64,000 nt of DNA from a bacterium (GCA_009924895.1 RFQR01000005.1:3710-67709); one strand, 5' to 3'; positions 28,673 through 61,647 are shown, numbered from the stretch's first letter. A program made the numbers and translations. Notes: generated by a model from the letters alone, not told the origin.

Positions 28673-28971
28673 CCCTAATTTTTAGGATAGTGTTGCAAAA
28701 TGTATGCGGTGTACGTAATCCAGCACTCTCGAGATAGAAGTCTGTATGTTGATTATACCAATAATCTCAAAACAAGACTGTCTCAACATAATGCGCGCGA
28801 AAATATCTCAACAAATAGAACGGAAGGTACTTGGAAGTATGTCTATGTTGAATTATATCGTTCTGAAAAAGATGCGCGCACCAGAGAGAAGAAGTTAAAA
28901 CACCACGGCACAGCAAAACATAAACTGTTTGAAAGAATAAGAGACAGTTGTTTTGAATCCTAAAAATTAGG
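28673..28971. repeat. pair of inverted 14-bp palindromic repeats (CCCTAATTTTTAGGA at 28673-28687; TCCTAAAAATTAGG at 28958-28971) bracketing the GIY-YIG gene
   Basis: Read directly. The right copy overlaps the stop codon. Confidence 0.6.
28700..28963 (+). CDS. GIY-YIG nuclease superfamily protein (UPF0213-like, stand-alone 87 aa)
   Basis: N-terminal YAVYVIQ...LYVDYT GIY-YIG motif followed by a conserved R and a later E/N region. Confidence 0.75.
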   Translation: MYAVYVIQHSRDRSLYVDYTNNLKTRLSQHNARENISTNRTEGTWKYVYVELYRSEKDARTREKKLKHHGTAKHKLFERIRDSCFES

Positions 28972-30986: not shown

Positions 30987-31214
30987 TTAGTCGATGTCTC
31001 TCAGGGCTGCTTTTGTGAAGAAGTACTCGTGCTCATGACTCGCGAACTCATCGTCCGTAAGTCTGAACAAAAGACGTTCCTCACATTGGATAAGGCGCCT
31101 TACTTCGTCGGCAGAGACCGCGAGGCCATTCTGCCGATCCTCCTTGAGATCCTTGGAAAAGATCTGAAGGAAGCGCTGTTTTTGAGGGGACAGCACCCTT
31201 TTGGTGTGGCTCAT
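30987..31214 (-). CDS. hypothetical small protein downstream of the histidine kinase
   Basis: 75-aa ORF. A weak hairpin plus T-tract terminator lies on the minus strand at about 30911-30950. The alternative plus-strand ORF 31029..31250 is less likely. Confidence 0.3.
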   Translation of the reverse strand: MSHTKRVLSPQKQRFLQIFSKDLKEDRQNGLAVSADEVRRLIQCEERLLFRLTDDEFASHEHEYFFTKAALRDID

Positions 31215-31274
31215 CGCCAGTACTCCAACCGCTACCCGATCGTAGCGTAATGAGATTATACATTATTAGTTAAT

Positions 31275-32900
31275 TTATGTCAAATTAATCTTGTCCAGTT
31301 CAATAATAAATCGTGACCCCTTATCCTTCCCTTCTGATTCTGCCCAGACTTTTCCACCCATACCTTCAATGAATGTGCGACCGAGATAGAGTCCAAGGCC
31401 AGTGCCAAGGAGGTTAGCCTTTTGCGCGTCAGCTCGCGCAAACTTTTGAAATAATTTCGGGAGCACTTCTGGCGGAATGCCGACACCCGTGTCAGAGACG
31501 GTCGCACGGACTTTTCCATCGTGTTCTGATACGGCAACAGAAATAGAACCAGTGCGTGTGTACTTAAGTGAGTTGTCGAGGATGTTACCTAGGACTTCTT
31601 TAAATTTACCAAGGTCACCTTTGGTCATGACTGATGGTGTTGTTGCGCTAAATTGCAGTCCCCTATCAGCTGCATGTGGACGAAAACCATCGGCAACCTG
31701 CGATACGGCGAGGCCAATGTCAAACGGTGCGATTGAATACGCTATTTGACCGAGTTCCATTTTTGAACGGTCCAAGAATTGTGAGATAAGACGCAGGACA
31801 TCATCACCGGTCAGAAGAATCTGATTCGCTGCACGCGTCGTATCTTTATTTGTCTCCCCCGTTGTGCCGTCAGTAATGAGAGATGCATATCCACGCATGG
31901 CAGTAATTGGATTTCTAATTTCATGTGAAGCAAATGCCATAAATTCTGATTTTTCTTGGCTCAGTTTTTCAACTTCTGCGCGCGCTTTTATCTCGGCGTT
32001 AACGCTTCGCACGAGCAGGTATCCAAAACCAGATATAAGAAAAAGAGAACACCCAACTAATACGTATGCCATTTCTGATGAAACAAACAGAAATTCTGAT
32101 CCAACAGACACGACCAGAGCCACCACGAGTGCTTGTGCGGCTACTAATTTTAGATTAAATGCTCCGTACTGGACTGTTGCATATGCAAGCATCCCGATAA
32201 AGAAAGACATGGTCGCTACTCCATACATCTCGAGACCAAAGTCAGGCAAGAAACCAGCGGAAACGAGATAGCTGTCGAGTGTTCCAGTAAATACAAATGC
32301 AAAAATAAACAGCAGACCGCTTACAATTACAATCCATTTTCCATTTCTTTCCGCCCTAGTATCTGTAATAGAGTCTCGATACCACTGATATGTGCTAAAG
32401 AATATTAAAAGAGTAGCAACAAGACCAAGAAAGTAATAGTAGTTAGTGAACGCGTTGTTCTCCACGACCGCACAGACTTGCGAATCGATACCCTTCACAT
32501 TAAATCCTGTTGGCGTTAACATGATTATGGGTGTCAGCAATAAACCCCACGTGTAAATGAGCCAATCTGGAGTTGTCTTTGAAAGATAGAGTTGTATAAA
32601 CCAATGAGTAAAGAAGAATGTAAAAGCAGTCAATAAACCGAATAACGACCATATAGCAATTTGGAGAGAGGGGCGGTCATAAAAAACCCATACAGTAATA
32701 TCGGCAAAGGTCCATAAAATAAATGTAACCGACAATAAACATAGTACGACTGCCTGCAGTGTTCGCGTATTGTAAAGTACGTAAAATCCGAATAGCGCAG
32801 AAAGGCACATCGCGGGAATGTGTGTGTACAGCAACAGTGGAAACGTCTCTGACAGTGTGTTGGAACAGGCGACCAAAAATGGTAAGAGGTTGTAACCCAT
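31275..32900 (-). CDS. sensor histidine kinase with polytopic N-terminal membrane domain
   Basis: H-box FMAFASHEIRNP, N/G boxes (GNILDNSLKYT, DTGVGIPPE, GTGLGLYLG) and about 8 N-terminal TM helices. No response regulator lies adjacent. Confidence 0.85.
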   Translation of the reverse strand: MGYNLLPFLVACSNTLSETFPLLLYTHIPAMCLSALFGFYVLYNTRTLQAVVLCLLSVTFILWTFADITVWVFYDRPSLQIAIWSLFGLLTAFTFFFTHWFIQLYLSKTTPDWLIYTWGLLLTPIIMLTPTGFNVKGIDSQVCAVVENNAFTNYYYFLGLVATLLIFFSTYQWYRDSITDTRAERNGKWIVIVSGLLFIFAFVFTGTLDSYLVSAGFLPDFGLEMYGVATMSFFIGMLAYATVQYGAFNLKLVAAQALVVALVVSVGSEFLFVSSEMAYVLVGCSLFLISGFGYLLVRSVNAEIKARAEVEKLSQEKSEFMAFASHEIRNPITAMRGYASLITDGTTGETNKDTTRAANQILLTGDDVLRLISQFLDRSKMELGQIAYSIAPFDIGLAVSQVADGFRPHAADRGLQFSATTPSVMTKGDLGKFKEVLGNILDNSLKYTRTGSISVAVSEHDGKVRATVSDTGVGIPPEVLPKLFQKFARADAQKANLLGTGLGLYLGRTFIEGMGGKVWAESEGKDKGSRFIIELDKINLT

Positions 32901-32904
32901 AGTT

Positions 32905-33687
32905 TTATTGGGGTCGATTCATTGGTGAAAAAAGCTCTCGCACCCCTTTTGGATAGTAATTCCAAAATGGTGAGCTGTCATTCTCTTCGGGGATCATTGG
33001 CACGATAAGGGGTCTGAGCCCAAAGAGGCGCTCTAATTCTTGGACTGCGGGTATTGCTTTATTGTAGGTAAAGTTTTTTTGCTCTTCGTCCGAATCTAGA
33101 AAGTTCTCAAATAAAATACCTTCGGTGACAAATAATCCTAGATACCTCAAATATGAGTGTTTATCTGAAAATTTTTCTGCAGAAAAAAACCATCCAGAAT
33201 AGTCAACAACGAGAGGTTTATTGGAAGAAAAATAACCCTCATACAATTTTTTATGAAACGATGTAAGGTGCTCCCCTTCCAATGTCATAACCTCTTTTAT
33301 TTGTTTTCCCTCGTTGTTCTTAAAATCGACTATAATTCTTTTTTCAATAATAGAAAAATGCAACGGATCGTCAGTGTCAGAGAAAATCATTTTCCCTAAA
33401 CACCTTTTCTCTGGGTTGAGACCAACAAATTTATCTTCAGGTCCTTGAAAAAAGAGTGTGGGTATAGAAAGTTGGGGCACCACTTTTTTTACGAAATGAT
33501 TAATTTCGTGGGTCGGGGATAGTAAAGCACGGGATACCACAGCGTATGGGACGTTTTGTAGTATTTCAGGCGACGGCAAGGTACGAAAATAAGAACTTAC
33601 AGCATTGAGAAGTGACTTGTCTGAGCGTCGATGTTCTAGCTCGCGTAGAGCCTTGTCAAGTGTAAAATAGAGATCATGTTTTTCCAT
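32905..33687 (-). CDS. hypothetical protein (260 aa), AT-rich gene
   Basis: Long ORF in operon position upstream of the kinase. No motif recognised. Confidence 0.45.
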   Translation of the reverse strand: MEKHDLYFTLDKALRELEHRRSDKSLLNAVSSYFRTLPSPEILQNVPYAVVSRALLSPTHEINHFVKKVVPQLSIPTLFFQGPEDKFVGLNPEKRCLGKMIFSDTDDPLHFSIIEKRIIVDFKNNEGKQIKEVMTLEGEHLTSFHKKLYEGYFSSNKPLVVDYSGWFFSAEKFSDKHSYLRYLGLFVTEGILFENFLDSDEEQKNFTYNKAIPAVQELERLFGLRPLIVPMIPEENDSSPFWNYYPKGVRELFSPMNRPQ

Positions 33688-33690
33688 ATA

Positions 33691-34071
33691 TCACAACGGT
33701 GATGAGCTTGCCTGTTCTGAAACGCTGCAGGGAATCTCAGAAGATGTATCACAATAACTTTCGAAACAGTTTACTCCATCGCTGGGTTTGCATTGTTGCT
33801 CCGGGCATTCACCTGCCCAAGCACGACACCTTTCAATGAGATATGCCTTTCGATGAATAAGCTTGTAGAAAGTGGGGGTTAGCAAACTGTCTCCAACGAA
33901 ACAAGAGTGTAATGACGGGTCACATGTTACGGGTGTTACTGTCATGTAATCCTGCCTTATGTAAAAGTGGTACACCGAGAAGAGAATGGATACACAAAAA
34001 CCAATCAGAAGTAATGAGAGTACAAAAGTGAACTTACGTCTCATGGGACTAGAGTATACAACATATTTCAA
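33691..34071 (-). CDS. membrane-anchored Cys-rich small protein (probable start MRRKF at 34044)
   Basis: Signal/TM helix followed by a domain with 9 Cys residues. Confidence 0.4.
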   Translation of the reverse strand: MKYVVYSSPMRRKFTFVLSLLLIGFCVSILFSVYHFYIRQDYMTVTPVTCDPSLHSCFVGDSLLTPTFYKLIHRKAYLIERCRAWAGECPEQQCKPSDGVNCFESYCDTSSEIPCSVSEQASSSPL

Positions 34072-34079
34072 ATGCCCTG

Positions 34080-34805
34080 TTATCTCAAGAACGAAGCGGC
34101 AAAGTAAATTTGGCGTACAACCTCAACTATAATAACCCATCGGAGCGTCCAGTATGCGTTTGAAAAAAGGACCGCTGTCCAAAAAATTTTCCAATCTCGA
34201 CGTGTCATCCCGTTAAACTGATTTTTTTTGTGCCTAAAATAAACCACTACCATAAAGGGGTCTCCATGCGTAGACAGAATTAGAAATGCTGGGATACTCC
34301 CAAGATGCAGTAATTTGCGTATCAAGTTTGCAAACCAACTTAGTTCGTGATCCTCATCCTTCCATTCTTTTATGAGCTCAAATCCAAGCCAGTCTCTTCT
34401 ACTCTTGTCGTACACTTGTAAATAAATAAGTGATATAACAGCAGAAAGAGGCATCATGACCCAGAAACTCCAAATGAGACCCCAAACAGTCCCAAAGTGA
34501 GCTGTGCACCATGCGGTTACTGTGCCATAAAGCAACCAATCAAAAAGAAACTCCTCAATCCTCTTTAACGTGTGCCCTGTCGCAACAATTGCGGCTTTTT
34601 TTCCATGAGAGTGATGTTCTGACACATACGTAGTATCACATAGAAAGAAGCAGGCGCCGATTTCGCGGCGCCTACTGTTCAGTTTGTGAGCTGTTGCCAG
34701 AGAGGTCGTAGCACTGGCTCGACGTAATCCCACACGTACCAGATGAGCTGAACTAACGCACTCCAGCGCACTGTCCAGTATGTGTTCGATACGAAAACGC
34801 TGCAC
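34080..34805 (-). CDS. hypothetical polytopic membrane protein, paralog 1 of a tandem pair (true start probably internal, near 34600-34625)
   Basis: Shares EEFLFDWLLYG...W(Y)C...DWLG(F/L)EL with the upstream paralog. The 5' end of the track ORF overlaps the paralog 2 gene by 127 nt. Confidence 0.45.
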   Translation of the reverse strand: MQRFRIEHILDSALECVSSAHLVRVGLRRASATTSLATAHKLNSRRREIGACFFLCDTTYVSEHHSHGKKAAIVATGHTLKRIEEFLFDWLLYGTVTAWCTAHFGTVWGLIWSFWVMMPLSAVISLIYLQVYDKSRRDWLGFELIKEWKDEDHELSWFANLIRKLLHLGSIPAFLILSTHGDPFMVVVYFRHKKNQFNGMTRRDWKIFWTAVLFSNAYWTLRWVIIVEVVRQIYFAASFLR

Positions 34806-35248
34806 CAGAAGATATTAGTGTCACGTCCGGTTAGCTTCGTGTACGTTTCGCCTTTTTTTCGAAAATATACTGTCGTCATGAACGGGTCAGTCCAGAACGA
34901 CAATACAAAAAAAGCAGGTACACCCTTTCCGCTTCGCACGATTGCTCGTGCTTTTCTGGTGAACCAATTTCCACCTTTTGAGCGTTTCAATTCTTTTAAG
35001 AGCTCAAGTCCAAGCCAGTCTTTGCCGATTGCGTTGTAGATTGCAATCCAAAAAAAAGACACGCAAGCAGAAAGTGGCGCCATGATGCAAAATGCCGCCA
35101 GGCTTCCATATACGGGACCCCATTCGGCGTTGCAATACCACGTTACTGCTCCATACAAGAGCCAATCGAAAAGGAATTCTTCGACCCGCTTGAATCCATG
35201 GCCGGTCATGATGGTGCCGGCACGGATGAAAACATTTTTCCATGCCAA
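34679..35248 (-). CDS. hypothetical polytopic membrane protein, paralog 2 of a tandem pair
   Basis: 189 aa. Motifs as for paralog 1. Confidence 0.5.
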   Translation of the reverse strand: MAWKNVFIRAGTIMTGHGFKRVEEFLFDWLLYGAVTWYCNAEWGPVYGSLAAFCIMAPLSACVSFFWIAIYNAIGKDWLGLELLKELKRSKGGNWFTRKARAIVRSGKGVPAFFVLSFWTDPFMTTVYFRKKGETYTKLTGRDTNIFWCSVFVSNTYWTVRWSALVQLIWYVWDYVEPVLRPLWQQLTN

Positions 35249-51812: not shown

Positions 51813-51983
51813 GTTAGAAATTCTTAGCGAGTAACACGAGCTTAGAAGTTCTTACACCCCGCTCTAATTTTACTGAGCTAGTGGTTGCCGAAATCTGTAC
51901 TGTTAACTCGCGTTGCATCATATACTAATAATAGTGTTCTGTAAAATTAGTGCGGGGTAAGTGTCCGCTTCGCTTCCCTTAAT
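51813..51983 (-). repeat. structured inter-cistronic spacer R1 (171 nt, rpsK-rpsD), member of a three-copy paralogous family
   Basis: Conserved ends (on plus strand GTTAGAnnTTCTTAGCGAG next to the downstream start, and TGTTCTGTAAAATTAGTGCGGGGTAAGTGT...CCCTTAA next to the upstream stop). Long-range pairing CTTACACCCCGC..TAATTTTA with TAAAATTAGTGCGGGGTAAG. Confidence 0.7.
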
Positions 51984-52418: not shown

Positions 52419-52592
52419 TGTGTTAGAAGCTCTTAACGAGCGAAGCGAGTTTAGAGATTCTTACATCCCTCCCCAATTTTACTCGGTCAGTACTTGCAAA
52501 AATCTACATCTTTAACTCGCGCAATATTGTATAGCAAAAAAATCAGTTTGTAAAATTGGCGAGGGAAAGATACTCAATCCCCGCTCTCGTAA
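52419..52592 (-). repeat. structured inter-cistronic spacer R2 (174 nt, rpsM-rpsK), a divergent member of the same family
   Basis: Shares the GTTAGAAGCTCTTAACGAGCGAAGCGAG..TTCTTACA..CCCCAATTTTACT and ..TTTGTAAAATTGGCGAGGG..CCCCGCTCTC blocks. Confidence 0.6.
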
Positions 52593-52976: not shown

Positions 52977-53145
52977 GTTAGAGGTTCTTAGCGAGTATTT
53001 GCGAGCTTAGAAGCTCTTACACCCCGCACTAATTTCAGCGGACTCAATGTAAGATATGCTTTTTTCTGCTCGTTGGACATCATATGCTAAAAGTGTTGTT
53101 CTGTAAAATGTAGTGCGGGGTAAGTGTTCGCTTCGCTCCCTTAAA
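52977..53145 (-). repeat. structured inter-cistronic spacer R3 (169 nt, rpmJ-rpsM), closest paralog of R1
   Basis: GTTAGAGGTTCTTAGCGAG...CTTACACCCCGCACTAATTTCAGCGG ... TGTTCTGTAAAATGTAGTGCGGGGTAAGTGTTCGCTTCGCTCCCTTAAATTAG. Same long-range helix as R1. Confidence 0.7.
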
Positions 53146-53641: not shown

Positions 53642-54100
53642 TTACGCTGTTTTGCAATCGTTGCAGTCTTTACACTCAGGACAAATACCTCCCAGCAGGG
53701 TACAGTGCTGGTGATAGCTCCATGCACCAGGACCAAATTTCACTACGTAGAGCAGGCCGCCGATAATCGCGAGGTTTTTGAGGAACATTACCTGCTGCAT
53801 CTGCTGTGACCAATCCATGTGGAAGAATATGGTTGCGAGTGCAGTAAAGGCAATGAGCATCCATGCACCAATACGTGCATGAAAGCCAGTTAGTACCATG
53901 AGCGCCCCTCCCAATTTCAAGAAGAGAGCTATAACGGTAGCTACTTCTGCCATAGGAACACCAACTGATGCAATCATCTGGACAGAACCAGAAAAGTTCA
54001 TCAGCATTCCCCAACCACTAATAAGAAAAAGGCTCGCAATAAGTACACGACCAACGGGCATACACCACTTGCTTATTGATGTATTCATAATCTTGCGCAC
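53642..54100 (-). CDS. DoxX-family membrane protein
   Basis: Small 4-TM protein with DoxX-like LFLISGWGML...LGGALMVL segments. The C-terminal CPECKDCNDCK tail is unusual. Confidence 0.55.
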   Translation of the reverse strand: MRKIMNTSISKWCMPVGRVLIASLFLISGWGMLMNFSGSVQMIASVGVPMAEVATVIALFLKLGGALMVLTGFHARIGAWMLIAFTALATIFFHMDWSQQMQQVMFLKNLAIIGGLLYVVKFGPGAWSYHQHCTLLGGICPECKDCNDCKTA

Positions 54101-54133
54101 TAAGTTAGTAAGTACCCTAATGGTACCGGGGTA

Positions 54134-54180
54134 TTCAAATAGAACAAGGGCCAGTGTTCACATTGCTGTAACACTGGCCC
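54134..54180 (-). terminator. intrinsic terminator (GGGCCAGTGTT / AACACTGGCCC 11-bp stem, T-rich tail on the minus strand)
   Basis: Read directly. Confidence 0.55.
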
Positions 54181-54193
54181 TCGAGTCGTCCGA

Positions 54194-54901
54194 TCAGGAC
54201 ACGAGTTCGTGCCCTTTTGGAGCTTTGATCTCGATCTTGACGGCGATCTGCACGTGACGTTTTCCGTGCATGATGCAACCGCCGTTTTCACGCACCGCCT
54301 TATAGATCATGGCGAGTGTGTTGCCGCGCGTGTAGTGGTATTGGCGTTCGTATTCGAAGACGCTCGGATCAGAGCACTTGTCCAGTGTGTCGTCGCCGAT
54401 CCAGATAGTCCGGAACTTCCGGATCGTTCCTTTTGCACCATCTGAACAGGCCGGAACCAGCCAAACCCACTTGGTGACCACCGGTTGGTGGAGTGATTCG
54501 GCGATTTCGCCCGCTTGGTTGACTTTGGCGACGTAGCCAAGGTTGGCGTCAAGCCATGCGGTCTGTTCTGCGTCTGTCGCGAGAATCGGAAACGGCTGCT
54601 CTTCGCTGCAGTGTTTGCCTGCCGCGACTGCTTTTTCACGCAGGATTGGGTCGAGTACGACCGTCGAAAGCGGCATTTCCTCGAACAGGTTGCGCAGTTG
54701 AAGCAAGAACCTGCCGTTGCCGAGAGCTTTCAGGTTGTTTCGGCCGATGACGATTCGTCCGAAACCGCGGTTGAAGTAGTAGTTCAGCTGGTTTTTCACC
54801 CACCTGCCGATGCCGAGCCCCACCAGGAGGGTGAAGCAAACGTAGGCGAGGAGTTGTAACCCATGATATTGGGTTGGTGTCAGTGAGAACAAGTCGAACA
54901 T
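54194..54901 (-). CDS. hypothetical membrane-anchored protein (GC-rich island gene 1)
   Basis: N-terminal TM helix followed by a 200-aa soluble domain with no recognised motif. Local GC is clearly above the window average. Confidence 0.5.
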   Translation of the reverse strand: MFDLFSLTPTQYHGLQLLAYVCFTLLVGLGIGRWVKNQLNYYFNRGFGRIVIGRNNLKALGNGRFLLQLRNLFEEMPLSTVVLDPILREKAVAAGKHCSEEQPFPILATDAEQTAWLDANLGYVAKVNQAGEIAESLHQPVVTKWVWLVPACSDGAKGTIRKFRTIWIGDDTLDKCSDPSVFEYERQYHYTRGNTLAMIYKAVRENGGCIMHGKRHVQIAVKIEIKAPKGHELVS

Positions 54902-54963
54902 CTGGCTTCCTCTTTGGTTGACCCGCCTCTGTGGCGAGAGCCCATCAGGCTGACGTGCTTATA

Positions 54964-55004
54964 CCATAAAAATCCACCCCTGTCCACACTTGCGTGGACA
55001 GGGG
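54964..55004 (-). terminator. intrinsic terminator (CCCCTGTCCAC - ACTTGC - GTGGACAGGGG, then TGGATTTTTATGG on the minus strand)
   Basis: Read directly. Confidence 0.65.
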
Positions 55005-55014
55005 TTCAGCTGCA

Positions 55015-55788
55015 TCAGGCAGCTTCGCTCAGAGCATCGAGTGCCTGCTCGATTCCGGGCGTCTTGCGTGTGAGGATCTCTGCAGTCCACACAGGCGCTT
55101 GCTGGCCGATTTCGATTTCGTTTTCGAGAGTTGCTTCAGCAAACAGGGCGCGAGACAGCTCATATTGCTTTGCCATCTCGACCATAGCTTCGATGTAGAC
55201 TGCGTGCGATTGACGGTGCGGGACCAGACGAGCGACAAAGTCCGCATCCAACATCTGCACGAGCCGCCCGGGGTTCACCTTGATGACGTGCGGCATCATC
55301 ATGCCATCATCGCTCTTGAGAGCGGTGAGCATGAATGCACGATTGCGCTGCACATATGCTCCGTGGTTTTCATCCACCGCATCTTCTGTCGCGACCGTGT
55401 CGTCACCGGTGATATGGCGGTGGATACGTTCCATTCCGCTGTGATGGATTGCTCCCCGCGGCAGAAGCGGCTGTCCCGGCCTCACATGTGTGACGTGCTT
55501 ACGAACGAGTGCTTGAAGCCGGGCGCTACCGAACACTTTGTCGAGAGTTGGCAGCTCGGGTGGCGTAATCCCACGGATCTCGACGTAGCCGGGGAGTTCG
55601 CGGAACGCGATGTTGACAACGGCAACGTTGTCACGATCGATACCCTTTCTGCCGTCATTGTACCCACGCGCGCGGGCCCAGCCGTACGTGAAGTAGCCCA
55701 CGATTGCGCACAACGAAACGACGATGGCGAGAAAGACACGCCATTCGTCTGCCGTAACGTTTGCGAGTGTATTCCATAGTTTGTCCAC
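55015..55788 (-). CDS. hypothetical membrane-anchored protein (GC-rich island gene 2)
   Basis: N-terminal TM helix (WRVFLAIVVSLCAIVGYFTYGW). The overlapping plus-strand ORF 54994..55779 is judged a GC-rich antisense artefact. Confidence 0.5.
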   Translation of the reverse strand: MDKLWNTLANVTADEWRVFLAIVVSLCAIVGYFTYGWARARGYNDGRKGIDRDNVAVVNIAFRELPGYVEIRGITPPELPTLDKVFGSARLQALVRKHVTHVRPGQPLLPRGAIHHSGMERIHRHITGDDTVATEDAVDENHGAYVQRNRAFMLTALKSDDGMMMPHVIKVNPGRLVQMLDADFVARLVPHRQSHAVYIEAMVEMAKQYELSRALFAEATLENEIEIGQQAPVWTAEILTRKTPGIEQALDALSEAA

Positions 55789-55850
55789 GGAGGATCTCCT
55801 TGCTTGGACGACAGTGTCCGCCTGAACTCTACGTTTTTTGTTGTAAATGT

Positions 55851-55887
55851 CAAAAAGAATGCGGGCGGCGCTTTAAGCGCCGCCCGC
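55851..55887 (-). terminator. intrinsic terminator (GCGGGCGGCGC - TTTAA - GCGCCGCCCGC, then ATTCTTTTTG on the minus strand)
   Basis: Read directly. Perfect 11-bp GC stem. Confidence 0.7.
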
Positions 55888-55896
55888 AAAAGCCTA

Positions 55897-56463
55897 CTAA
55901 GTCTTCGGGACGCAATAGAGATACATGTTCCCTATCTTGCCGACGTACGGCTTTGCTTGGTTCAGCGTTGCCCACTGTTTTGCAGTGCTTAACACACGTC
56001 GAACCTCAGAGCCGGTATAGTCGTTCACGCACCAGTATTCTTCCGGCCAAGAGAAACGATATTCTCCTGCGACAGCTTTTCTGATAACAACGCTGCGCTC
56101 ATTTTGCCGCCAGTATTTGTTAGTCTCGAGTGCCCACCGGCGACTGAACTCAACGAAGCCTTTGAAGCGCTCCCACTTAGTTTTGAAGTTGCCGATTGGG
56201 CAGAAGTCTTCAAGGCCCTGTGCGACACGACGGCGGTGTATTTCTGCCGCCATTGCTGCTTGCTGCTCGAAGAGTGCTTGCTGTCCTTTTTTCGGCCCTC
56301 TTCTATCGAGGTTGACGTCAAGCGTCTGAGCAAGGCACTCAGACTGAACTGTTTTTGCTCCGTAGCTGTACATCAGATAGGTCGTACCGACAATCGTAAT
56401 CAACACCATACCGGTACTGAGTACGATAATGTGCCAGGTTTTCCAACGCTTTTTTTCGCTCAC
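55897..56463 (-). CDS. hypothetical membrane-anchored protein (GC-rich island gene 3), GTG start
   Basis: GGAGA is 7 nt upstream of a GTG (VSEKKRWKTWHIIVLSTGMVLITIV...). Track ORF extends to 56517. Confidence 0.45.
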   Translation of the reverse strand: MSEKKRWKTWHIIVLSTGMVLITIVGTTYLMYSYGAKTVQSECLAQTLDVNLDRRGPKKGQQALFEQQAAMAAEIHRRRVAQGLEDFCPIGNFKTKWERFKGFVEFSRRWALETNKYWRQNERSVVIRKAVAGEYRFSWPEEYWCVNDYTGSEVRRVLSTAKQWATLNQAKPYVGKIGNMYLYCVPKT

Positions 56464-56569
56464 AGTGATTCTCCGTTTTCGTTGATTCTTCACATACCAT
56501 ACAATGAAAATGTGCACATTTCAAGTAAAACGTTAAGGGCGCGCTCACTAAGGAGCGCACCCTTCGATT

Positions 56570-57157
56570 TCACTTCTTATTGTCAGGTGTGCGCCACTGT
56601 GGTGGCGATGACGTACCCGGCCCCGGTGCCCGTTCTGCGCGCCAGCCAGCCAGTGTCCTTGGCGGCGGTGGGAGCACCACCTCCTTCTCCAGCATGCCTC
56701 TGATCGTGCGATTGTGAAAGGCCTTGCCCATCAGATGCTTTGAGCACCATCCAATGGACTTTCCGACCGGATAGAGGATCATGATCAGACCGAACTGGAT
56801 TTTGCTAAAGATGAGGCCGATCACAGATGCTGTCGCTGAATCACTGATCACTGAATCCAGCCAGATCTGCACGTTGTTCTGCCACGTGTTTAGGGTGGTA
56901 AGACCACGATTGATAATCCAGCGCGCTGCGTCTGGCGATATCATAGCAATCAAAACTAGTCCGCCAATGGTTCCGAAGAACCATCCGACGAACCCTCCAA
57001 CTACCTGAATGGTCGTCTGTGCGCTTGATGGATGCATGCTTTTTGTCTTCACGAGAAGCCAAAGTCCGACACCTAGTGACCCGAGACTGAGAATCACTAA
57101 TGAGATGAAGGATATGCCGATTGCTTGTGCCCAGGTGAAGAGGCCTGAAGGGTTCAT
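56570..57157 (-). CDS. hypothetical polytopic membrane protein (GC-rich island gene 4)
   Basis: AGAGGAGA is 6 nt upstream of the ATG at 57157 (MNPSGLF...). Four hydrophobic segments and a Pro-rich C-terminus. Track ORF extends to 57259. Confidence 0.5.
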   Translation of the reverse strand: MNPSGLFTWAQAIGISFISLVILSLGSLGVGLWLLVKTKSMHPSSAQTTIQVVGGFVGWFFGTIGGLVLIAMISPDAARWIINRGLTTLNTWQNNVQIWLDSVISDSATASVIGLIFSKIQFGLIMILYPVGKSIGWCSKHLMGKAFHNRTIRGMLEKEVVLPPPPRTLAGWRAERAPGPGTSSPPQWRTPDNKK

Positions 57158-57360
57158 AGCTGTCTCCTCTTTCTTCAACGAACTCCACTGTTCGCTCAAA
57201 TCACTATGCAACGAATATGAAAAAAAGCAAGTTTTTGCTAAGGCACTCTCAACCTCCAACTGCCCGGTAAAATATCCGCAATATGTATGTGCACATTGGC
57301 TTCAGAATACGTGAACGGATTGGGCTGTTAACCGCGAAAGGAATGAGGGTGCCTAATTTC

Positions 57361-57406
57361 AAAAAAATATAAAAGAAGAAGGGCAGGGGGTGTTACTCCC
57401 CTGCCC
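57361..57406 (-). terminator. intrinsic terminator (GGGCAGGGG - GTGTTACT - CCCCTGCCC, then a T-rich run on the minus strand)
   Basis: Read directly. Confidence 0.7.
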
Positions 57407-57419
57407 TCCGATGATGCGC

Positions 57420-57950
57420 TTACTCGCGCTGCATCAACGGCTTCTGAGCCGCATTGTTGATTGCTGTGTCAGGTGTGGTGAAGCCGTCCATGACCTGGAA
57501 GATGGCCGGGATGACGAAAGCCCAGTACACTGAGCCGTAGCTGCCGAGCATGTAGCCGGCAACGAGCAGCATCAGTCCGCTCATGAAGACGGACGTCTTG
57601 GTTTCCGCACGGAGGCTGTCGACCTTGGTGTGCATGTCACGCACCACCTTGATCTGCGACCAGAACCAGACAGACATTACTGCCGTCTGGCCGAGAAGCA
57701 ATGCGAAAATCCAGGGATTGTCCTTGATCTTCGTCACGTCGATGCGATTTGAGAACTCTGCGATGCCGAACCATTTGGCGGCGCCGACGCTTGCGAACAT
57801 AACGACGACCGGGAAGAGAATAGTCGACCCGATACTTATCGCTGTCTTGCCGAACGTGCCGAGAGTCGAAATGCTCAAGCGGCTTTTCGTGCCACCGGGT
57901 TCATCACGGCTCTCGGAGTTCACTGTCTTCAGAGGTGTCGGATTTGCCAT
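57420..57950 (-). CDS. hypothetical membrane protein (GC-rich island gene 5)
   Basis: 176 aa, four hydrophobic segments. No motif recognised. Confidence 0.5.
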   Translation of the reverse strand: MANPTPLKTVNSESRDEPGGTKSRLSISTLGTFGKTAISIGSTILFPVVVMFASVGAAKWFGIAEFSNRIDVTKIKDNPWIFALLLGQTAVMSVWFWSQIKVVRDMHTKVDSLRAETKTSVFMSGLMLLVAGYMLGSYGSVYWAFVIPAIFQVMDGFTTPDTAINNAAQKPLMQRE

Positions 57951-58157
57951 TGGGAAAAACTCCTTGTTTTGTTTCCCATTTCAACACTGGTACTGGGCAC
58001 TCCAGCCCAGTGGTAATATAATACTACTTTTTTTTATTTTGTCAAGCATAAAACTTGACAAAACACTTAAATCATGTATTGTGTCAAAACTCATCGTATG
58101 CAGAGCGTTCGGTGGGTGTTTCGAAACAGTCCCAACCTGAAAGGTAAAGGACACCAC

Positions 58158-58547
58158 ATGAAGAAACTGAAGAAACTGATAATCGCCGCAGCTGCGGCAT
58201 TGCTCGTCACCGCACCGGCATTCGCCCAAGTGGCACAGGTCCAGAAGTTGGGCCTCGTCACTCAGGACATCGAGATCACCCTCGAGTCCAACGCGGGCAA
58301 GCTCTCTCGCTTCAAGGCGGGACAGAAGTGCATCATGCGTGAGGGAACGATCGTCGCGCTGCTCGGGCCGACCGCGGATGGGAAGGAGCGCATTCAGCGC
58401 ACCAACCTCATCGCAATCCGGTTTCCCAATCGGCAGACGTGCCCCGAAGGTGCATCCGGCCCCGTCGAGGCAACGGTCGCTCTTGCGATGGCGAAGGCGC
58501 ACCAGGACAAGGTGTCCGCAAAGGGCGGCGCCACGAAGAAGAACTGA
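58158..58547 (+). CDS. small secreted protein (GC-rich island gene 6)
   Basis: AAAGGA SD-like element, then MKKLKKLIIAAAAALLVTAPAFAQV signal peptide. Track ORF starts at 58074. A TTGACA..TATTGT promoter-like pair lies at about 58063-58090. Confidence 0.55.
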   Translation: MKKLKKLIIAAAAALLVTAPAFAQVAQVQKLGLVTQDIEITLESNAGKLSRFKAGQKCIMREGTIVALLGPTADGKERIQRTNLIAIRFPNRQTCPEGASGPVEATVALAMAKAHQDKVSAKGGATKKN

Positions 58548-58582
58548 TCGTTCTTCACCAGTGACGAGGTAGTCGTCACATT

Positions 58583-58616
58583 GGGCACCCCTCAGACGGG
58601 TGCCCTTTTCTTTTTA
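58583..58616 (+). terminator. intrinsic terminator (GGGCACCC - CTCAGAC - GGGTGCCC then TTTTCTTTTT)
   Basis: Read directly. Confidence 0.7.
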
Positions 58617-58626
58617 CAACGAAATA

Positions 58627-58682
58627 CCAAGGGTTACCCTTGGGAGCAACAAGTCCCTTTACTTTACCAAGGGTAACCCTTG
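58627..58682. promoter_or_regulatory. two copies of a 17-bp palindrome (CCAAGGGTTACCCTTGG at 58627-58643; CCAAGGGTAACCCTTGA at 58667-58683) 40 bp apart, upstream of the secreted Cys-rich protein gene
   Basis: Read directly. The same-phase spacing suggests a dimeric-regulator operator pair. Confidence 0.5.
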
Positions 58683-58796
58683 ATAACTTAGTAAAACTTT
58701 GCATACTGAATTTGTGTGAGATTGTAAATTATGAAAAAAATGGCATAGTAAAAACGGTTTGGGGCAGTACCCGAACCTTCACAAAAGGAACAGAGA

Positions 58797-59372
58797 ATGA
58801 AGAAACTAGTCCTTCCTCTGCTAGCAGTTTGGGCACTGCTCTGCTTCGATGTGGCACACGCCCAAGAAGGGGTGTGTGTTGAGAGCCTTGTCAGTTCGGA
58901 CAAGACCTTGGAATTCACCCAGAAGAAACTGGGAGACAAGTGCGAGACGATCAGTGGCAGAGATCCCCGCACTGGTATCGTCGGTCAAACGGAAGATGGC
59001 AAAGCATTCACCACGGTCATCAGCCCGGCCGAGATCGTGGAAGACCCTGAGGTGAGACAGTGCAGTAGCATGCCCTCTCAGGGGCGTAGCAACAAAGGGG
59101 GCTACTCTGTCACAATCGAAATGTGGTCAACTAAGACCGAGTGTACCCCCGCGCCGGTTCCTGGCTATCCGCGACGGACACTTAACCTTGAGGTGACGCT
59201 CTTGATCAGCGGCTCAGGCATCGCCGGCACAGTGTGTCTCAATCCAGGTAACATGTGCGCATCAATTGACAGGCTCAGCGAAGATGCGCGCAGAAACATT
59301 GCTGACATGGTGATCTTCTGCATCTTCGAACAGATCGCCGGTCCGGTCTTGACACCCAAGCAGAAGACCTGA
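58797..59372 (+). CDS. secreted Cys-rich protein (GC-rich island gene 7)
   Basis: AAGGA SD, signal peptide MKKLVLPLLAVWALLCFDVAHA, and 9 Cys in the mature part. Confidence 0.55.
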   Translation: MKKLVLPLLAVWALLCFDVAHAQEGVCVESLVSSDKTLEFTQKKLGDKCETISGRDPRTGIVGQTEDGKAFTTVISPAEIVEDPEVRQCSSMPSQGRSNKGGYSVTIEMWSTKTECTPAPVPGYPRRTLNLEVTLLISGSGIAGTVCLNPGNMCASIDRLSEDARRNIADMVIFCIFEQIAGPVLTPKQKT

Positions 59373-59401
59373 TCGATCGGGTCAGAACGACGAAACGTAC
59401 G

Positions 59402-59436
59402 ATGGGGCGGTCTTGCGACCGCCCCATCTTTTTTGT
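59402..59436 (+). terminator. intrinsic terminator (ATGGGGCGGTC - TTGC - GACCGCCCCAT then CTTTTTTGTT), abutting the greA stop
   Basis: Read directly. Confidence 0.7.
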
Positions 59437-59900
59437 TACTTCACGTTTATAATTTTGTATTTCTGGCCTCCTTTTGGTGTTTCAAAGGTAAAGATATCAC
59501 CCTTCTTTTTTTCCATAAGTGCAGAACCGAGCGGGGAGAGGTGAGAAATTTTCTTTTCGTGCATGTTCGCTTCGGCAGAGCCGACGATTTCATACGTATA
59601 CTCATCTTTCTCCCCTACTTTTTGAATAGTGACGAACGAACCGAGGGAAACGTGATTGCCTTTTGAATATTCGATGATGCGCGCATGTGCAAGCTGCTCT
59701 TCAACAACGCGGATGCGGTCTTCGGTCGCTGCTTGCAGGTTGCGCGCCTCTTCGTATTCGGCATTTTCCGACAAATCCCCAAGTGAGCGTGCATATTCAA
59801 GCTGCTCTGCAATCTCGCGGCGACGGACCGTTTTCAAATGCTCAAGCTCTTCCGTCAGTTCATCAAATTTTTCCTTACTCAAGTAGTTGGTTTCTGTCAT
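59436..59900 (-). CDS. greA: transcription elongation factor GreA
   Basis: Coiled-coil N-terminus (LSKEKFDELTEELEHLK...) and a C-terminal FKBP-like domain. Track ORF extends to 59996. MTETNY at 59900 is the conserved start. Confidence 0.85.
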   Translation of the reverse strand: MTETNYLSKEKFDELTEELEHLKTVRRREIAEQLEYARSLGDLSENAEYEEARNLQAATEDRIRVVEEQLAHARIIEYSKGNHVSLGSFVTIQKVGEKDEYTYEIVGSAEANMHEKKISHLSPLGSALMEKKKGDIFTFETPKGGQKYKIINVK

Positions 59901-59949: not shown

Positions 59950-61647
59950 TTACTCAGATGCGATGTACTCAGGTTTATATGCGACGAGCCATTCAAAAAA
60001 AGGCTTCATCCCAGGTGCTGCACCTGAGAGTGTGCCTGCAGGAGCTTTTTCGAGCATAATCGCAAAGGCGTACCGAGGCTTCTCATACGGCCAAAAACCA
60101 ACCACCCATGAGTTCATCCATTGGTTATGCGTGCCGGTCTGTGCGGTTCCTGTTTTTGCCGCGATGTGAGGCTCGGGCATGTTGAGTGAGCGCGCTGTTC
60201 CGTAGTCAGGCAGCGTGACAGCAAGCCGCATACCCTCTCGTGCGACCTGTAGATGGGACTCGGTGATTCCAACGGTTCCTTGCACAGTCGGTCGCTCGCC
60301 TTTTATGAGATGTGGCTCGTACAGCGTCCCACCGTTTGCGAGGGCAGCGATTGCGCGGACGACCTGGAGCGGCGTAACCTGAAAACCAAACTGTCCGATT
60401 GCAGTATGGTAGGTGTTTCCAATGCGCCACGGATCGTTTGCTCCAAACACTTTCTCTTTCCATTCTGGTGTAGGAATAATCCCGGGTATCTCACCGCCGA
60501 GCATGACACCGGTTATCGTCGCAAAGCCAAAACGCTTTGAGTACTCGTCGATTTTGTTGATGCCAAGGCCTTTTTGACTTTTATACCCACCGCCAACGGT
60601 ATAAAAATATTCATCAGAGGATTGCGCAATCGCATGACGCATGTCGACCCATCCGTGCGCGCGCCAGTCTTTAAATATAGAAGGTTGATCGGGGTTATAG
60701 GGATTCGGCAGAATAAGTGCGCCGCTCGAATAAATCTGCTTTTCCGGAGAAATGATTTCCTCCTCGAGTGCCGCTGCCGCAAACAGCGGCTTTACAATCG
60801 AGCCGGGCGTGTAGGCACCTGCAACAGCGCGATTGAGGGTGGGCGAACGAACGCTCTCGTGCGCGGCATCAATTGCATCGCTATTCCCTTCGACAAACGC
60901 AGCGTTACTGTATTCGGGAATACTCGTAAGAGCGAGAATGTTTCCTGTGTGGATATCCATAATGACGCCAGCACCACCCACAAAATGCTGTTCGTTTGCA
61001 TGGTGAAGCAATGTCTCATACAGTTTTGATTGGACTTCCGCATCAATCGTGAGATGGAGATCGGTACCATTTATTGGTTCGGTCGTAATGTTGGTGCGCA
61101 CGACTTTTCCACTCGCGCTTGTTTCGGTCATTGAACTGCCGTTTATACCGTGGAGCACAGAATCGTAAAAGTATTCGACACCAGAGACGGGTGTGTACTC
61201 TTCGCGCCACCACTCCCCTTTTGCATCGGATTTTGGATATCGGACAAATCCGAGAACGTGCGAGAGGCCGGGCAAGGATGTGTACTTTCGGAGCGTGAAG
61301 GTCGTACTTGCGGTACTGCTCGCATTCAGATCATTCCATGCGAGTTCGCGTTCGTTTTTGTCGAGAATACGGCCGCGTGTTGCAAACAAAACCGAACGAT
61401 CGAGGCGATTGTTACGAGAAATTTCTGCGTATTTTTCACCATCACTCACACTAATGCTGTAGGCTCGATACGCGAAGCCACATGCGACGGTGATAAACAG
61501 AAATACAAGTGCGAGAAATGCTTGAGTGGATACGGGCCGCTCAACACGACCTTCAAACTGATTCGGATCATGGTCAGGCAGGTTACTCGCATCGAGGAAT
61601 ATCTCGTCGGGATCGATGGAGTCGCGGTTGTAGTGTTTTGAGAGCAT
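59950..61647 (-). CDS. mrdA: penicillin-binding protein 2 (elongasome transpeptidase)
   Basis: SxxK (GSIVKP) and KTG (KTGTA) motifs, an N-terminal TM helix, and a position directly downstream of mreBCD. Confidence 0.8.
   Translation of the reverse strand: MLSKHYNRDSIDPDEIFLDASNLPDHDPNQFEGRVERPVSTQAFLALVFLFITVACGFAYRAYSISVSDGEKYAEISRNNRLDRSVLFATRGRILDKNERELAWNDLNASSTASTTFTLRKYTSLPGLSHVLGFVRYPKSDAKGEWWREEYTPVSGVEYFYDSVLHGINGSSMTETSASGKVVRTNITTEPINGTDLHLTIDAEVQSKLYETLLHHANEQHFVGGAGVIMDIHTGNILALTSIPEYSNAAFVEGNSDAIDAAHESVRSPTLNRAVAGAYTPGSIVKPLFAAAALEEEIISPEKQIYSSGALILPNPYNPDQPSIFKDWRAHGWVDMRHAIAQSSDEYFYTVGGGYKSQKGLGINKIDEYSKRFGFATITGVMLGGEIPGIIPTPEWKEKVFGANDPWRIGNTYHTAIGQFGFQVTPLQVVRAIAALANGGTLYEPHLIKGERPTVQGTVGITESHLQVAREGMRLAVTLPDYGTARSLNMPEPHIAAKTGTAQTGTHNQWMNSWVVGFWPYEKPRYAFAIMLEKAPAGTLSGAAPGMKPFFEWLVAYKPEYIASE

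Follow-up and report, generated by a model that had tools for sequence, protein, structure and literature searches.

Seven genes between doxX and greA

In the 64,000-nucleotide stretch of bacterial DNA analysed here (hereafter the window; positions 3710-67709 of contig RFQR01000005.1, assembly GCA_009924895.1), the genes doxX and greA are separated by a block of about 5.3 kb (54101-59440, referred to as the island), which contains seven genes, here called A to G. Five of these lie on the minus strand (A-E) and two on the plus strand (F and G), and a reading of the DNA bore out both the gene count and the strands given in the first-pass annotation, which a model had made from the sequence alone. 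The flanking host genes are both on the minus strand, i.e. doxX to the left (53642-54061; Pfam DoxX, E = 2e-14), which comes directly after greA in seven related species, and greA to the right (59436-59900), with the N- and C-terminal GreA_GreB domains of Pfam. The encoded GreA is 82-91% identical to the GreA of 80 species-level genomes (Candidatus Kaiserbacteria, Paceibacterota and Parcubacteria), and the host is a Parcubacterium of the Candidatus Kaiserbacteria type.

Each of the seven products begins with an N-terminal hydrophobic segment (a transmembrane (TM) anchor or a signal peptide), as had been noted at first pass. It had also been stated that none of them carries a recognisable domain, and indeed no significant match was obtained for any of the seven in Pfam, NCBIfam, PHROGs or PADLOC, while the public record labels all of them hypothetical proteins (EBR66_03055-03085). 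The clusters to which they belong at 90% identity comprise one to four sequences each, all from the same population, and the Logan contigs that match the window are all at least 99.97% identical to it. A scan against Rfam gave sub-threshold noise only. An open reading frame (ORF) on the plus strand (54994-55779), antisense to gene B, was discarded as spurious, because the homologues support the minus-strand gene.

GC content peaks in the island, at 53.3% versus 48.4% for the remainder of the window, which is the highest value among all 5.34-kb sliding windows (mean 48.6%, standard deviation 1.9%). In bulk this excess is modest, whereas at the synonymous (i.e. third codon) positions it is strong. 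The GC content at third codon positions (GC3) is 0.58-0.79 in the seven island genes versus 0.466 ± 0.044 (maximum 0.572) in the 54 other genes of the window, without any overlap (Mann-Whitney p = 2e-9), and the first and second codon positions (GC1 and GC2) do not show a shift relative to the same 54 genes. The ribosomal protein genes of the window have a low GC3 (0.39-0.49), and the shift is therefore not a codon bias linked to expression.

Each island gene would constitute its own expression unit, with a promoter-like site (for most genes), a leader containing a Shine-Dalgarno (SD) element and a strong intrinsic terminator. The six terminators named at first pass were all found, and a seventh was detected after D. 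On the minus strand, terminators follow A (54144-54181; hairpin with a ΔG of -27.8 kcal/mol, then a T-tract), B (54976-55005; 13-bp stem, after which comes an extended -10-like element for A, TGGTATAAG), C (55860-55888; 13-bp stem with 11 GC pairs, ΔG -29.3), D (56533-56562; ΔG -23.2, then GTTTTACT; the one missing from the earlier list) and E (57378-57409; 12-bp stem, ΔG -26.4). On the plus strand they follow F (58583-58605; a weaker 8-bp stem with 7 GC pairs, ΔG -17.5, then TTTTCTTTTT) and G (59401-59428; 12-bp stem, ΔG -26.4, then TTTTTTGT), the latter being convergent with greA. Hairpins with a T-tract and a ΔG of -20 kcal/mol or lower occur 13 times in the window, and seven of these are found in the island (8% of the sequence), six as gene-end terminators and the remaining one (56957) inside gene D. 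That the hairpins represent a repeat family or miniature inverted-repeat transposable elements (MITEs) was considered and rejected, since their stems all differ in sequence.

Genes A to E all have the same orientation, and each of the gaps between them (106-262 bp) contains a hairpin with a ΔG of -23 to -29 followed by a T-tract. They would therefore not form an operon in the classical sense, i.e. a co-directional series without internal terminators. The same applies to the homologous locus L095 (described below), where E, D, C, B and a 293-aa gene are each followed by a matching hairpin, so that the layout of one gene and one terminator is conserved.

Promoter-like sites precede most of the island genes. 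Gene B has such a site (TTGACA-16-TAGAGT) after the terminator of C, while in the divergent E/F promoter region (57951-58157) TTGACA-16-TATTAT is directed towards E (minus strand) and TTGACA-16-TATTGT towards F (plus strand). The latter two are near-consensus sigma-70-like promoters, and their -35 boxes form a palindrome (TTGTCAAG...CTTGACAA). The region that separates the terminator of F from gene G contains a 17-nt palindrome, CCAAGGGTWACCCTTGG, twice, with a spacing of 40 nt (58627-58643 and 58667-58683). It is found nowhere else in the window (by chance, 0.08 matches would be expected), occurs only in contigs of the same population and is absent from the homologous clusters; the pair is a candidate operator upstream of G, and the island itself contains no regulator gene.

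The strong SD elements, reported at first pass as being unlike those of the housekeeping genes, were confirmed by calculating the pairing with the anti-SD sequence: all seven island genes reach a ΔG of -5.3 to -9.1, versus only two of 21 housekeeping genes that reach -5.0 and 18 that stay at -2.7 or above. Examples of SD-poor housekeeping genes are those at 61647 (PBP2), 59900 (greA), 52976 (rpsM) and 41230 (dnaK); such genes are leaderless-like, and in several of them a -10-like box precedes the ATG by 6-10 nt. The two classes were also observed in four related lineages (L088, L090, L095, L096 and L098 were examined). In L095, L098, L088 and L090, the homologous genes and other small membrane genes without assigned function have SD sites, and L33, ParB, RelA, miaA, HAD and others are without them, several again with a -10-like box. 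This division between SD-less, leaderless-like housekeeping genes and SD-led accessory envelope genes should be taken into account when genes are called and expression is predicted in genomes of the candidate phyla radiation (CPR).

Gene families and their recurrence

Gene A (54194-54901, minus strand; 235 aa) encodes an N-terminal TM helix (residues 14-32) and a domain of ~200 aa. It has the SD element AGAGGAAG, a GC3 of 0.69 and four homologues at 69-74% identity. Gene B (55015-55788, minus strand; 257 aa) has a GTG start and the SD element AAGGAGA, and encodes an N-terminal TM helix followed by an alpha/beta domain. The B family is rare: an exhaustive HMMER search among 1.84 billion proteins found 24 representatives (at the 50% level). 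Structure prediction with AlphaFold2 (AF2), foreseen in the first-pass annotation, gave a confident model for B (pLDDT 92.7) and a poor one for A (pLDDT 59), the latter being used only for the order of the secondary-structure elements. Foldseek with the B model found no structural match in the PDB or among the viral models of BFVD, profile or sequence searches of the PDB with B were negative, and Pfam scans of 19 members of the family did not yield a consistent family. For B there is thus a confident structural model without a solved analogue.

A and B are distant paralogues. Aligned with hhalign, A and the B family reach a probability of 83% (E = 8.5e-6, 194 columns), compared to 0.3-0.6% when the profiles of E and C were used as controls, and the AF2 models of A and B have the same order of secondary-structure elements. 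No polar residue is invariant across the B family, which makes it more likely that the shared B/A domain serves as a binding or scaffold module than as an enzyme. In both proteins the TM helix is followed by positive charges and preceded by a short, acidic N-terminal tail; judging from this charge distribution and from hydropathy, the domains are probably cytoplasmic and tethered by an N-out anchor.

Gene C (55897-56463, minus strand; 188 aa, GTG start, SD GGAGA) encodes a protein that is 41% identical to its L095 homologue. Its N-terminus is basic, and it has a single TM helix and four invariant cysteines (Cys43, 88, 145 and 184), which indicates a predicted N-in anchor carrying an external, disulfide-bonded domain. 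Gene D (56570-57157, minus strand; 195 aa, SD AGAGGAGA) encodes a polytopic protein with about three TM helices (according to hydropathy) and a Pro-rich C-terminal tail, for which the gene in the syntenic position of L095 is a homologue (25% identity, E = 3e-8). The product of gene E (57420-57950, minus strand; 176 aa) is a small polytopic membrane protein with about four helices as read, of which a simple hydropathy scan flags only the first at its threshold. Its family comprises 31 members, with a C-terminal INNAAQKP that is invariant in the alignment, and it is 37-45% identical to its homologues in L095, L098 and P0041; Pfam scans of 16 members did not reveal a consistent family.

Genes F (58158-58547, plus strand; 129 aa) and G (58797-59372, plus strand; 191 aa) both encode exported proteins, with signal peptides that end in AFA and AHA, respectively, each before a Q. 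The exported part of F is ~105 aa long and the protein has two cysteines; homologues were found in L095 (34% identity) and L098 (27%), each divergent from E. A match of F to TrbC (Pfam, E = 0.054) is well below threshold and confined to the region of the signal peptide. The precursor of G contains eight cysteines, seven of which remain after cleavage of the signal peptide. Searches of the PDB with the profiles or sequences of C, F and G were negative. Metagenome contigs scanned with alignments of C and E yielded no relatives either, which is attributed to the method rather than to true absence, because JGI does list the proteins of the window itself. The first-pass description of the block as a surface or secretome set fits F, G, C and the polytopic D and E, and less so A and B, whose domains are more likely cytoplasmic.

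A large part of the island recurs elsewhere. The loci L095, L096 and L097 (with member P0020, 58% GC) contain F on the minus strand, divergent from E-D-C-B on the plus strand, i.e. in the order and orientation of the window. In this type of locus, a 293-aa gene and the F-like gene (both on the minus strand) diverge from the E-, D-, C- and B-like genes (plus strand), after which comes a convergent miaA. Between window and L095, the identities are 34% for F, 37% for E, 25% for D, 41% for C and 38% for B. The ParB and RelA of L095 are 68-70% identical to those of L083, a locus that also bears greA, and L095 is therefore considered Kaiserbacteria-like. In a third lineage (L098-L101, 59-62% GC) the divergent pair of F and E is kept, with other polytopic proteins after it, and in L095-L098 the module adjoins miaA and L33. 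In a fourth lineage (L090) a B-family gene, truncated at the end of the contig, comes before an A-like gene that abuts miaA, while in L088 an A-like gene lies beside a gene for a HAD hydrolase. Outside the CPR, a lone B homologue was found beside the nuo operon of a bacterium with 68-70% GC, and lone E-like proteins of 159 aa in genomes with 56-68% GC. A likeness seen by eye between the 293-aa protein of L095 and a 258-aa protein of L098 received no support from BLAST.

On sequence evidence, the divergent arrangement of F and E-D-C-B is a conserved syntenic module, common to several lineages at different chromosomal sites: it is complete in L095-L097, its pair of F and E is present in L098-L101, and the pair B-A is kept in L090. 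The seven genes could also be unrelated orphans that became neighbours by accident, as each has a terminator and most a promoter-like site of their own, G is an orphan, and homologues of A, B and E are found without the others. Such a coincidence is highly improbable, however, since order and orientation of F and E-D-C-B are kept at 25-41% identity and at a different chromosomal site, with F and E still paired in the third lineage and B and A in the fourth.

In L083 (10001-17190), greA lies 2.2 kb from miaA-ParB-RelA. The gap between greA and miaA contains a tRNA-like stretch and the genes for a polytopic membrane protein of 241 aa and a protein of 252 aa, which by eye only resemble a ZIP transporter and RadC, respectively. 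In both L095 and L090 it is miaA that borders the module; the neighbourhoods of greA and miaA may have been linked in an ancestor.

Origin of the island

In seven relatives (L020, L023, L068, L071, L073, L082 and L086) doxX follows greA directly and in the same orientation at a distance of ~75-290 bp, whereas in the window the two genes are 5.3 kb apart, which makes the block an insertion into the greA-doxX spacer. The comparison with related genomes that had been suggested at first pass pointed the same way, as a tblastn search for A-G within 10 kb of greA found no homologue in any of the 80 related loci. The block resembles genomic islands in its deviant composition, its insertion between conserved neighbours (with an empty site in relatives), its patchy distribution and the presence of homologous cargo at other sites. 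It differs from them in being small (5.3 kb), in carrying only uncharacterised envelope proteins and in having no integrase, tRNA target, direct repeats or mobility gene; the tRNAs of the window are found only at 1.2 and 4.6 kb.

Following these results, it is probable that the block is an acquired accessory cluster of conserved cell-envelope proteins in the greA-doxX spacer of a Kaiserbacteria-type Parcubacterium, and the cluster would most likely have been obtained horizontally from a related lineage with a higher GC content. In L095 (58% GC) the module looks like its host, with a GC content of 57.1% versus 58.6% for the rest and a GC3 of 0.62-0.88 versus about 0.6-0.78, while in the low-GC hosts (the window, L088 and L090) the A- and B-type genes have an elevated GC3. 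This difference would fit a transfer out of a Kaiserbacteria-like lineage of higher GC content into others of lower GC content, followed by partial amelioration. The claim of a horizontally acquired, autonomous cassette is supported by the GC3, the empty greA-doxX sites, the homologues elsewhere and the host-like GC content in L095.

Alternatively, the genes could be native, fast-evolving and lineage-specific, inherited vertically with rearrangement and frequent loss, and their GC3 could result from constraints on the individual genes (e.g. on mRNA stability or expression level). Several observations fit this explanation. Genes E and F have the highest GC3 not only in the window but also in L095, where the module is moreover compositionally native. 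The region downstream of greA is variable, and many relatives show rearrangements there (52 loci contain 195 ORF clusters). The distance between greA and miaA in L083 is short, the module has miaA as its neighbour in L095 and L090, the available relatives are distant, and Patescibacteria carry very many lineage-specific genes without assigned function (PMC9132574). On the other hand, the GC3 of the island is completely separated from that of the 54 host genes (with the highly expressed ribosomal protein genes at the low end), the families are extremely rare among 1.8-5.8 billion proteins, and B has homologues in unrelated bacteria with 42-70% GC. In addition, the histories of the genes are mosaic, as A of the window is 72% identical to the A-like gene of L090 but the adjacent B-like gene only 23%. 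Vertical descent is therefore considered unlikely, although a gene-specific component of the GC3 signal, besides foreign origin, is likely, since the top values of E and F in both genomes suggest that part of it may reflect gene-specific selection.

A number of further points weigh against an acquired cluster of cooperating envelope proteins. Uniform codon statistics would have refuted the first-pass reading; the GC3 is fully separated, but the synonymous-codon likelihood of the island genes under the host model deviates only weakly (z = -0.2 to -2.1). The relatives with an empty site are distant (51-62% identity in PBP2), and the comparison covered the greA neighbourhood of relatives only. 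No integrase, tRNA or flanking direct repeat that would point to a mechanism of insertion was found at the island. SD sites also mark the module in L095, where it appears native, so that they are a class feature of accessory genes rather than proof of transfer. The strong intergenic terminators argue against strict co-transcription, no homologue of G was found outside the same population, and the occurrence of B and E homologues as lone genes in non-CPR bacteria means that the proteins need not form one machine.

A phage as the source, which had been put forward at first pass, would be in line with the small membrane proteins, the autonomous transcription units and the composition unlike that of the host. 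However, IMG/VR scans were negative for all seven proteins, INPHARED contained no match at the DNA or protein level, and neither the seven proteins nor 19 members of the B family and 16 of the E family matched a PHROG. The viral structure database likewise held no counterpart of B, no integrase, att repeat, nearby tRNA or phage hallmark gene is present, and the homologous clusters sit among housekeeping genes. A prophage remnant, or a lysis or superinfection-exclusion cassette, is therefore essentially refuted. Plasmid cargo was also considered and set aside, as queries with B and with one homologue each of B and E matched no plasmid.

Possible role and other observations

The acquired cluster would consist of the exported proteins F and G, the N-in anchored C, the polytopic D and E, and the N-out tethered paralogues A and B. 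We infer that the island proteins act together at the membrane and the cell surface, and cooperation among these membrane and surface proteins is our best guess. They may contribute to the maintenance of the envelope, or to contacts with a host or a partner cell, but confidence in any such specific role is low. CPR bacteria (Patescibacteria) have small genomes and a biology that is thought to depend on the surface, while most of their envelope proteins are unannotated. More speculatively, genes A to F, joined by G in this lineage only, might encode an undescribed membrane-embedded system around a new fold (that of the B/A domain) and the four-TM INNAAQKP protein, mediating a surface process of these ultra-small and probably host-dependent cells, e.g. 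attachment to or exchange with a partner; this more specific proposal is a doubtful one.

With its small signal-peptide and bitopic membrane proteins in a cluster, the island has some likeness to type IV secretion loci (TrbC/VirB2 pilin, VirB8-like proteins). It lacks, however, any VirB4/VirD4 ATPase, VirB6, VirB8, VirB9 or VirB10 recognised by Pfam or NCBIfam, and B does not have the VirB8/NTF2 fold, since its model has no match in the PDB.

The cluster also shares properties with the small membrane-anchored defence systems of PADLOC-DB, namely families that are rare and patchily distributed, TM helices at the N-terminus and a location in a variable region. It could accordingly be imagined as an anti-phage defence or toxin-immunity cluster, with membrane sensors and effectors, or with F and G as exported toxins and D and E as the immunity proteins. 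The patchy distribution (with B as a lone gene in unrelated genomes) and the nature of the products (small TM proteins and exported proteins that contain cysteines) would agree with such a function. Nevertheless, none of the seven proteins matched a PADLOC-DB 2.0 model (E <= 1), and no nuclease, NTPase, protease or other effector domain was recognised by Pfam or NCBIfam. The B family is without conserved catalytic residues, having no invariant polar residue at all, and the ABC exporter or peptidase that is usual for bacteriocin loci is missing. A defence or toxin-immunity function is thus improbable, and cooperating membrane and surface proteins are still the favoured interpretation.

In a survey of CPR genomes, 283,874 taxonomically restricted genes without Pfam coverage were listed, mostly at the species level (PMC9132574). 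The island genes resemble these in belonging to a CPR genome, in lacking Pfam coverage and in being taxonomically restricted, but at least five of the seven (F, E, D, C and B) are syntenic across lineages, and B and E reach non-CPR bacteria. Since lineage-specific genes without assigned function are abundant in the group, an island of unannotated envelope proteins is not surprising: it is genuine and orderly, yet not unusual for such organisms, and does not overturn current views. What is new here is the conserved module of at least five genes, the recurrent B-A pair, the paralogy of A and B, the model of B and the dropping of the phage reading. The insertion between greA and doxX, together with the GC3 signature, makes the locus a clean example of gene flow between lineages of Parcubacteria. 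Moreover, the arrangement of F and E-D-C-B with A provides a shared context for five to six families without assigned function, which is a better start for experiments than isolated orphans.

Elsewhere in the window, a cassette of ~155 nt is repeated on the minus strand upstream of rpsD, rpsK and rpsM (51813-51970, 52419-52575 and 52977-53130), with a mean column identity of 79%. In it, an inverted repeat (CTTACCCCGCACTA ... TAGTGCGGGGTGTAAG) flanks a promoter-like site (TTTACA-17-TATGAT) and is followed by a tandem TAAGAAnnTCTAAC motif (five matches versus 0.18 expected) and then the start codon; the cassette may be a shared regulatory element that combines promoter and leader. A stretch of ~4 kb (~31200-35100) has a low GC content (0.39-0.44) and contains four minus-strand genes (541, 260, 126 and 241 aa), and may be another acquired block. 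In L092 (15277-16197), the locus of a 68%-GC bacterium with a lone B homologue, two tandem GIY-YIG genes lie inside the nuo (complex I) cluster. A low-GC ORF of 87 aa in the window (28700-28963; GC 0.375) resembles the GIY-YIG/UPF0213 type, by eye only.

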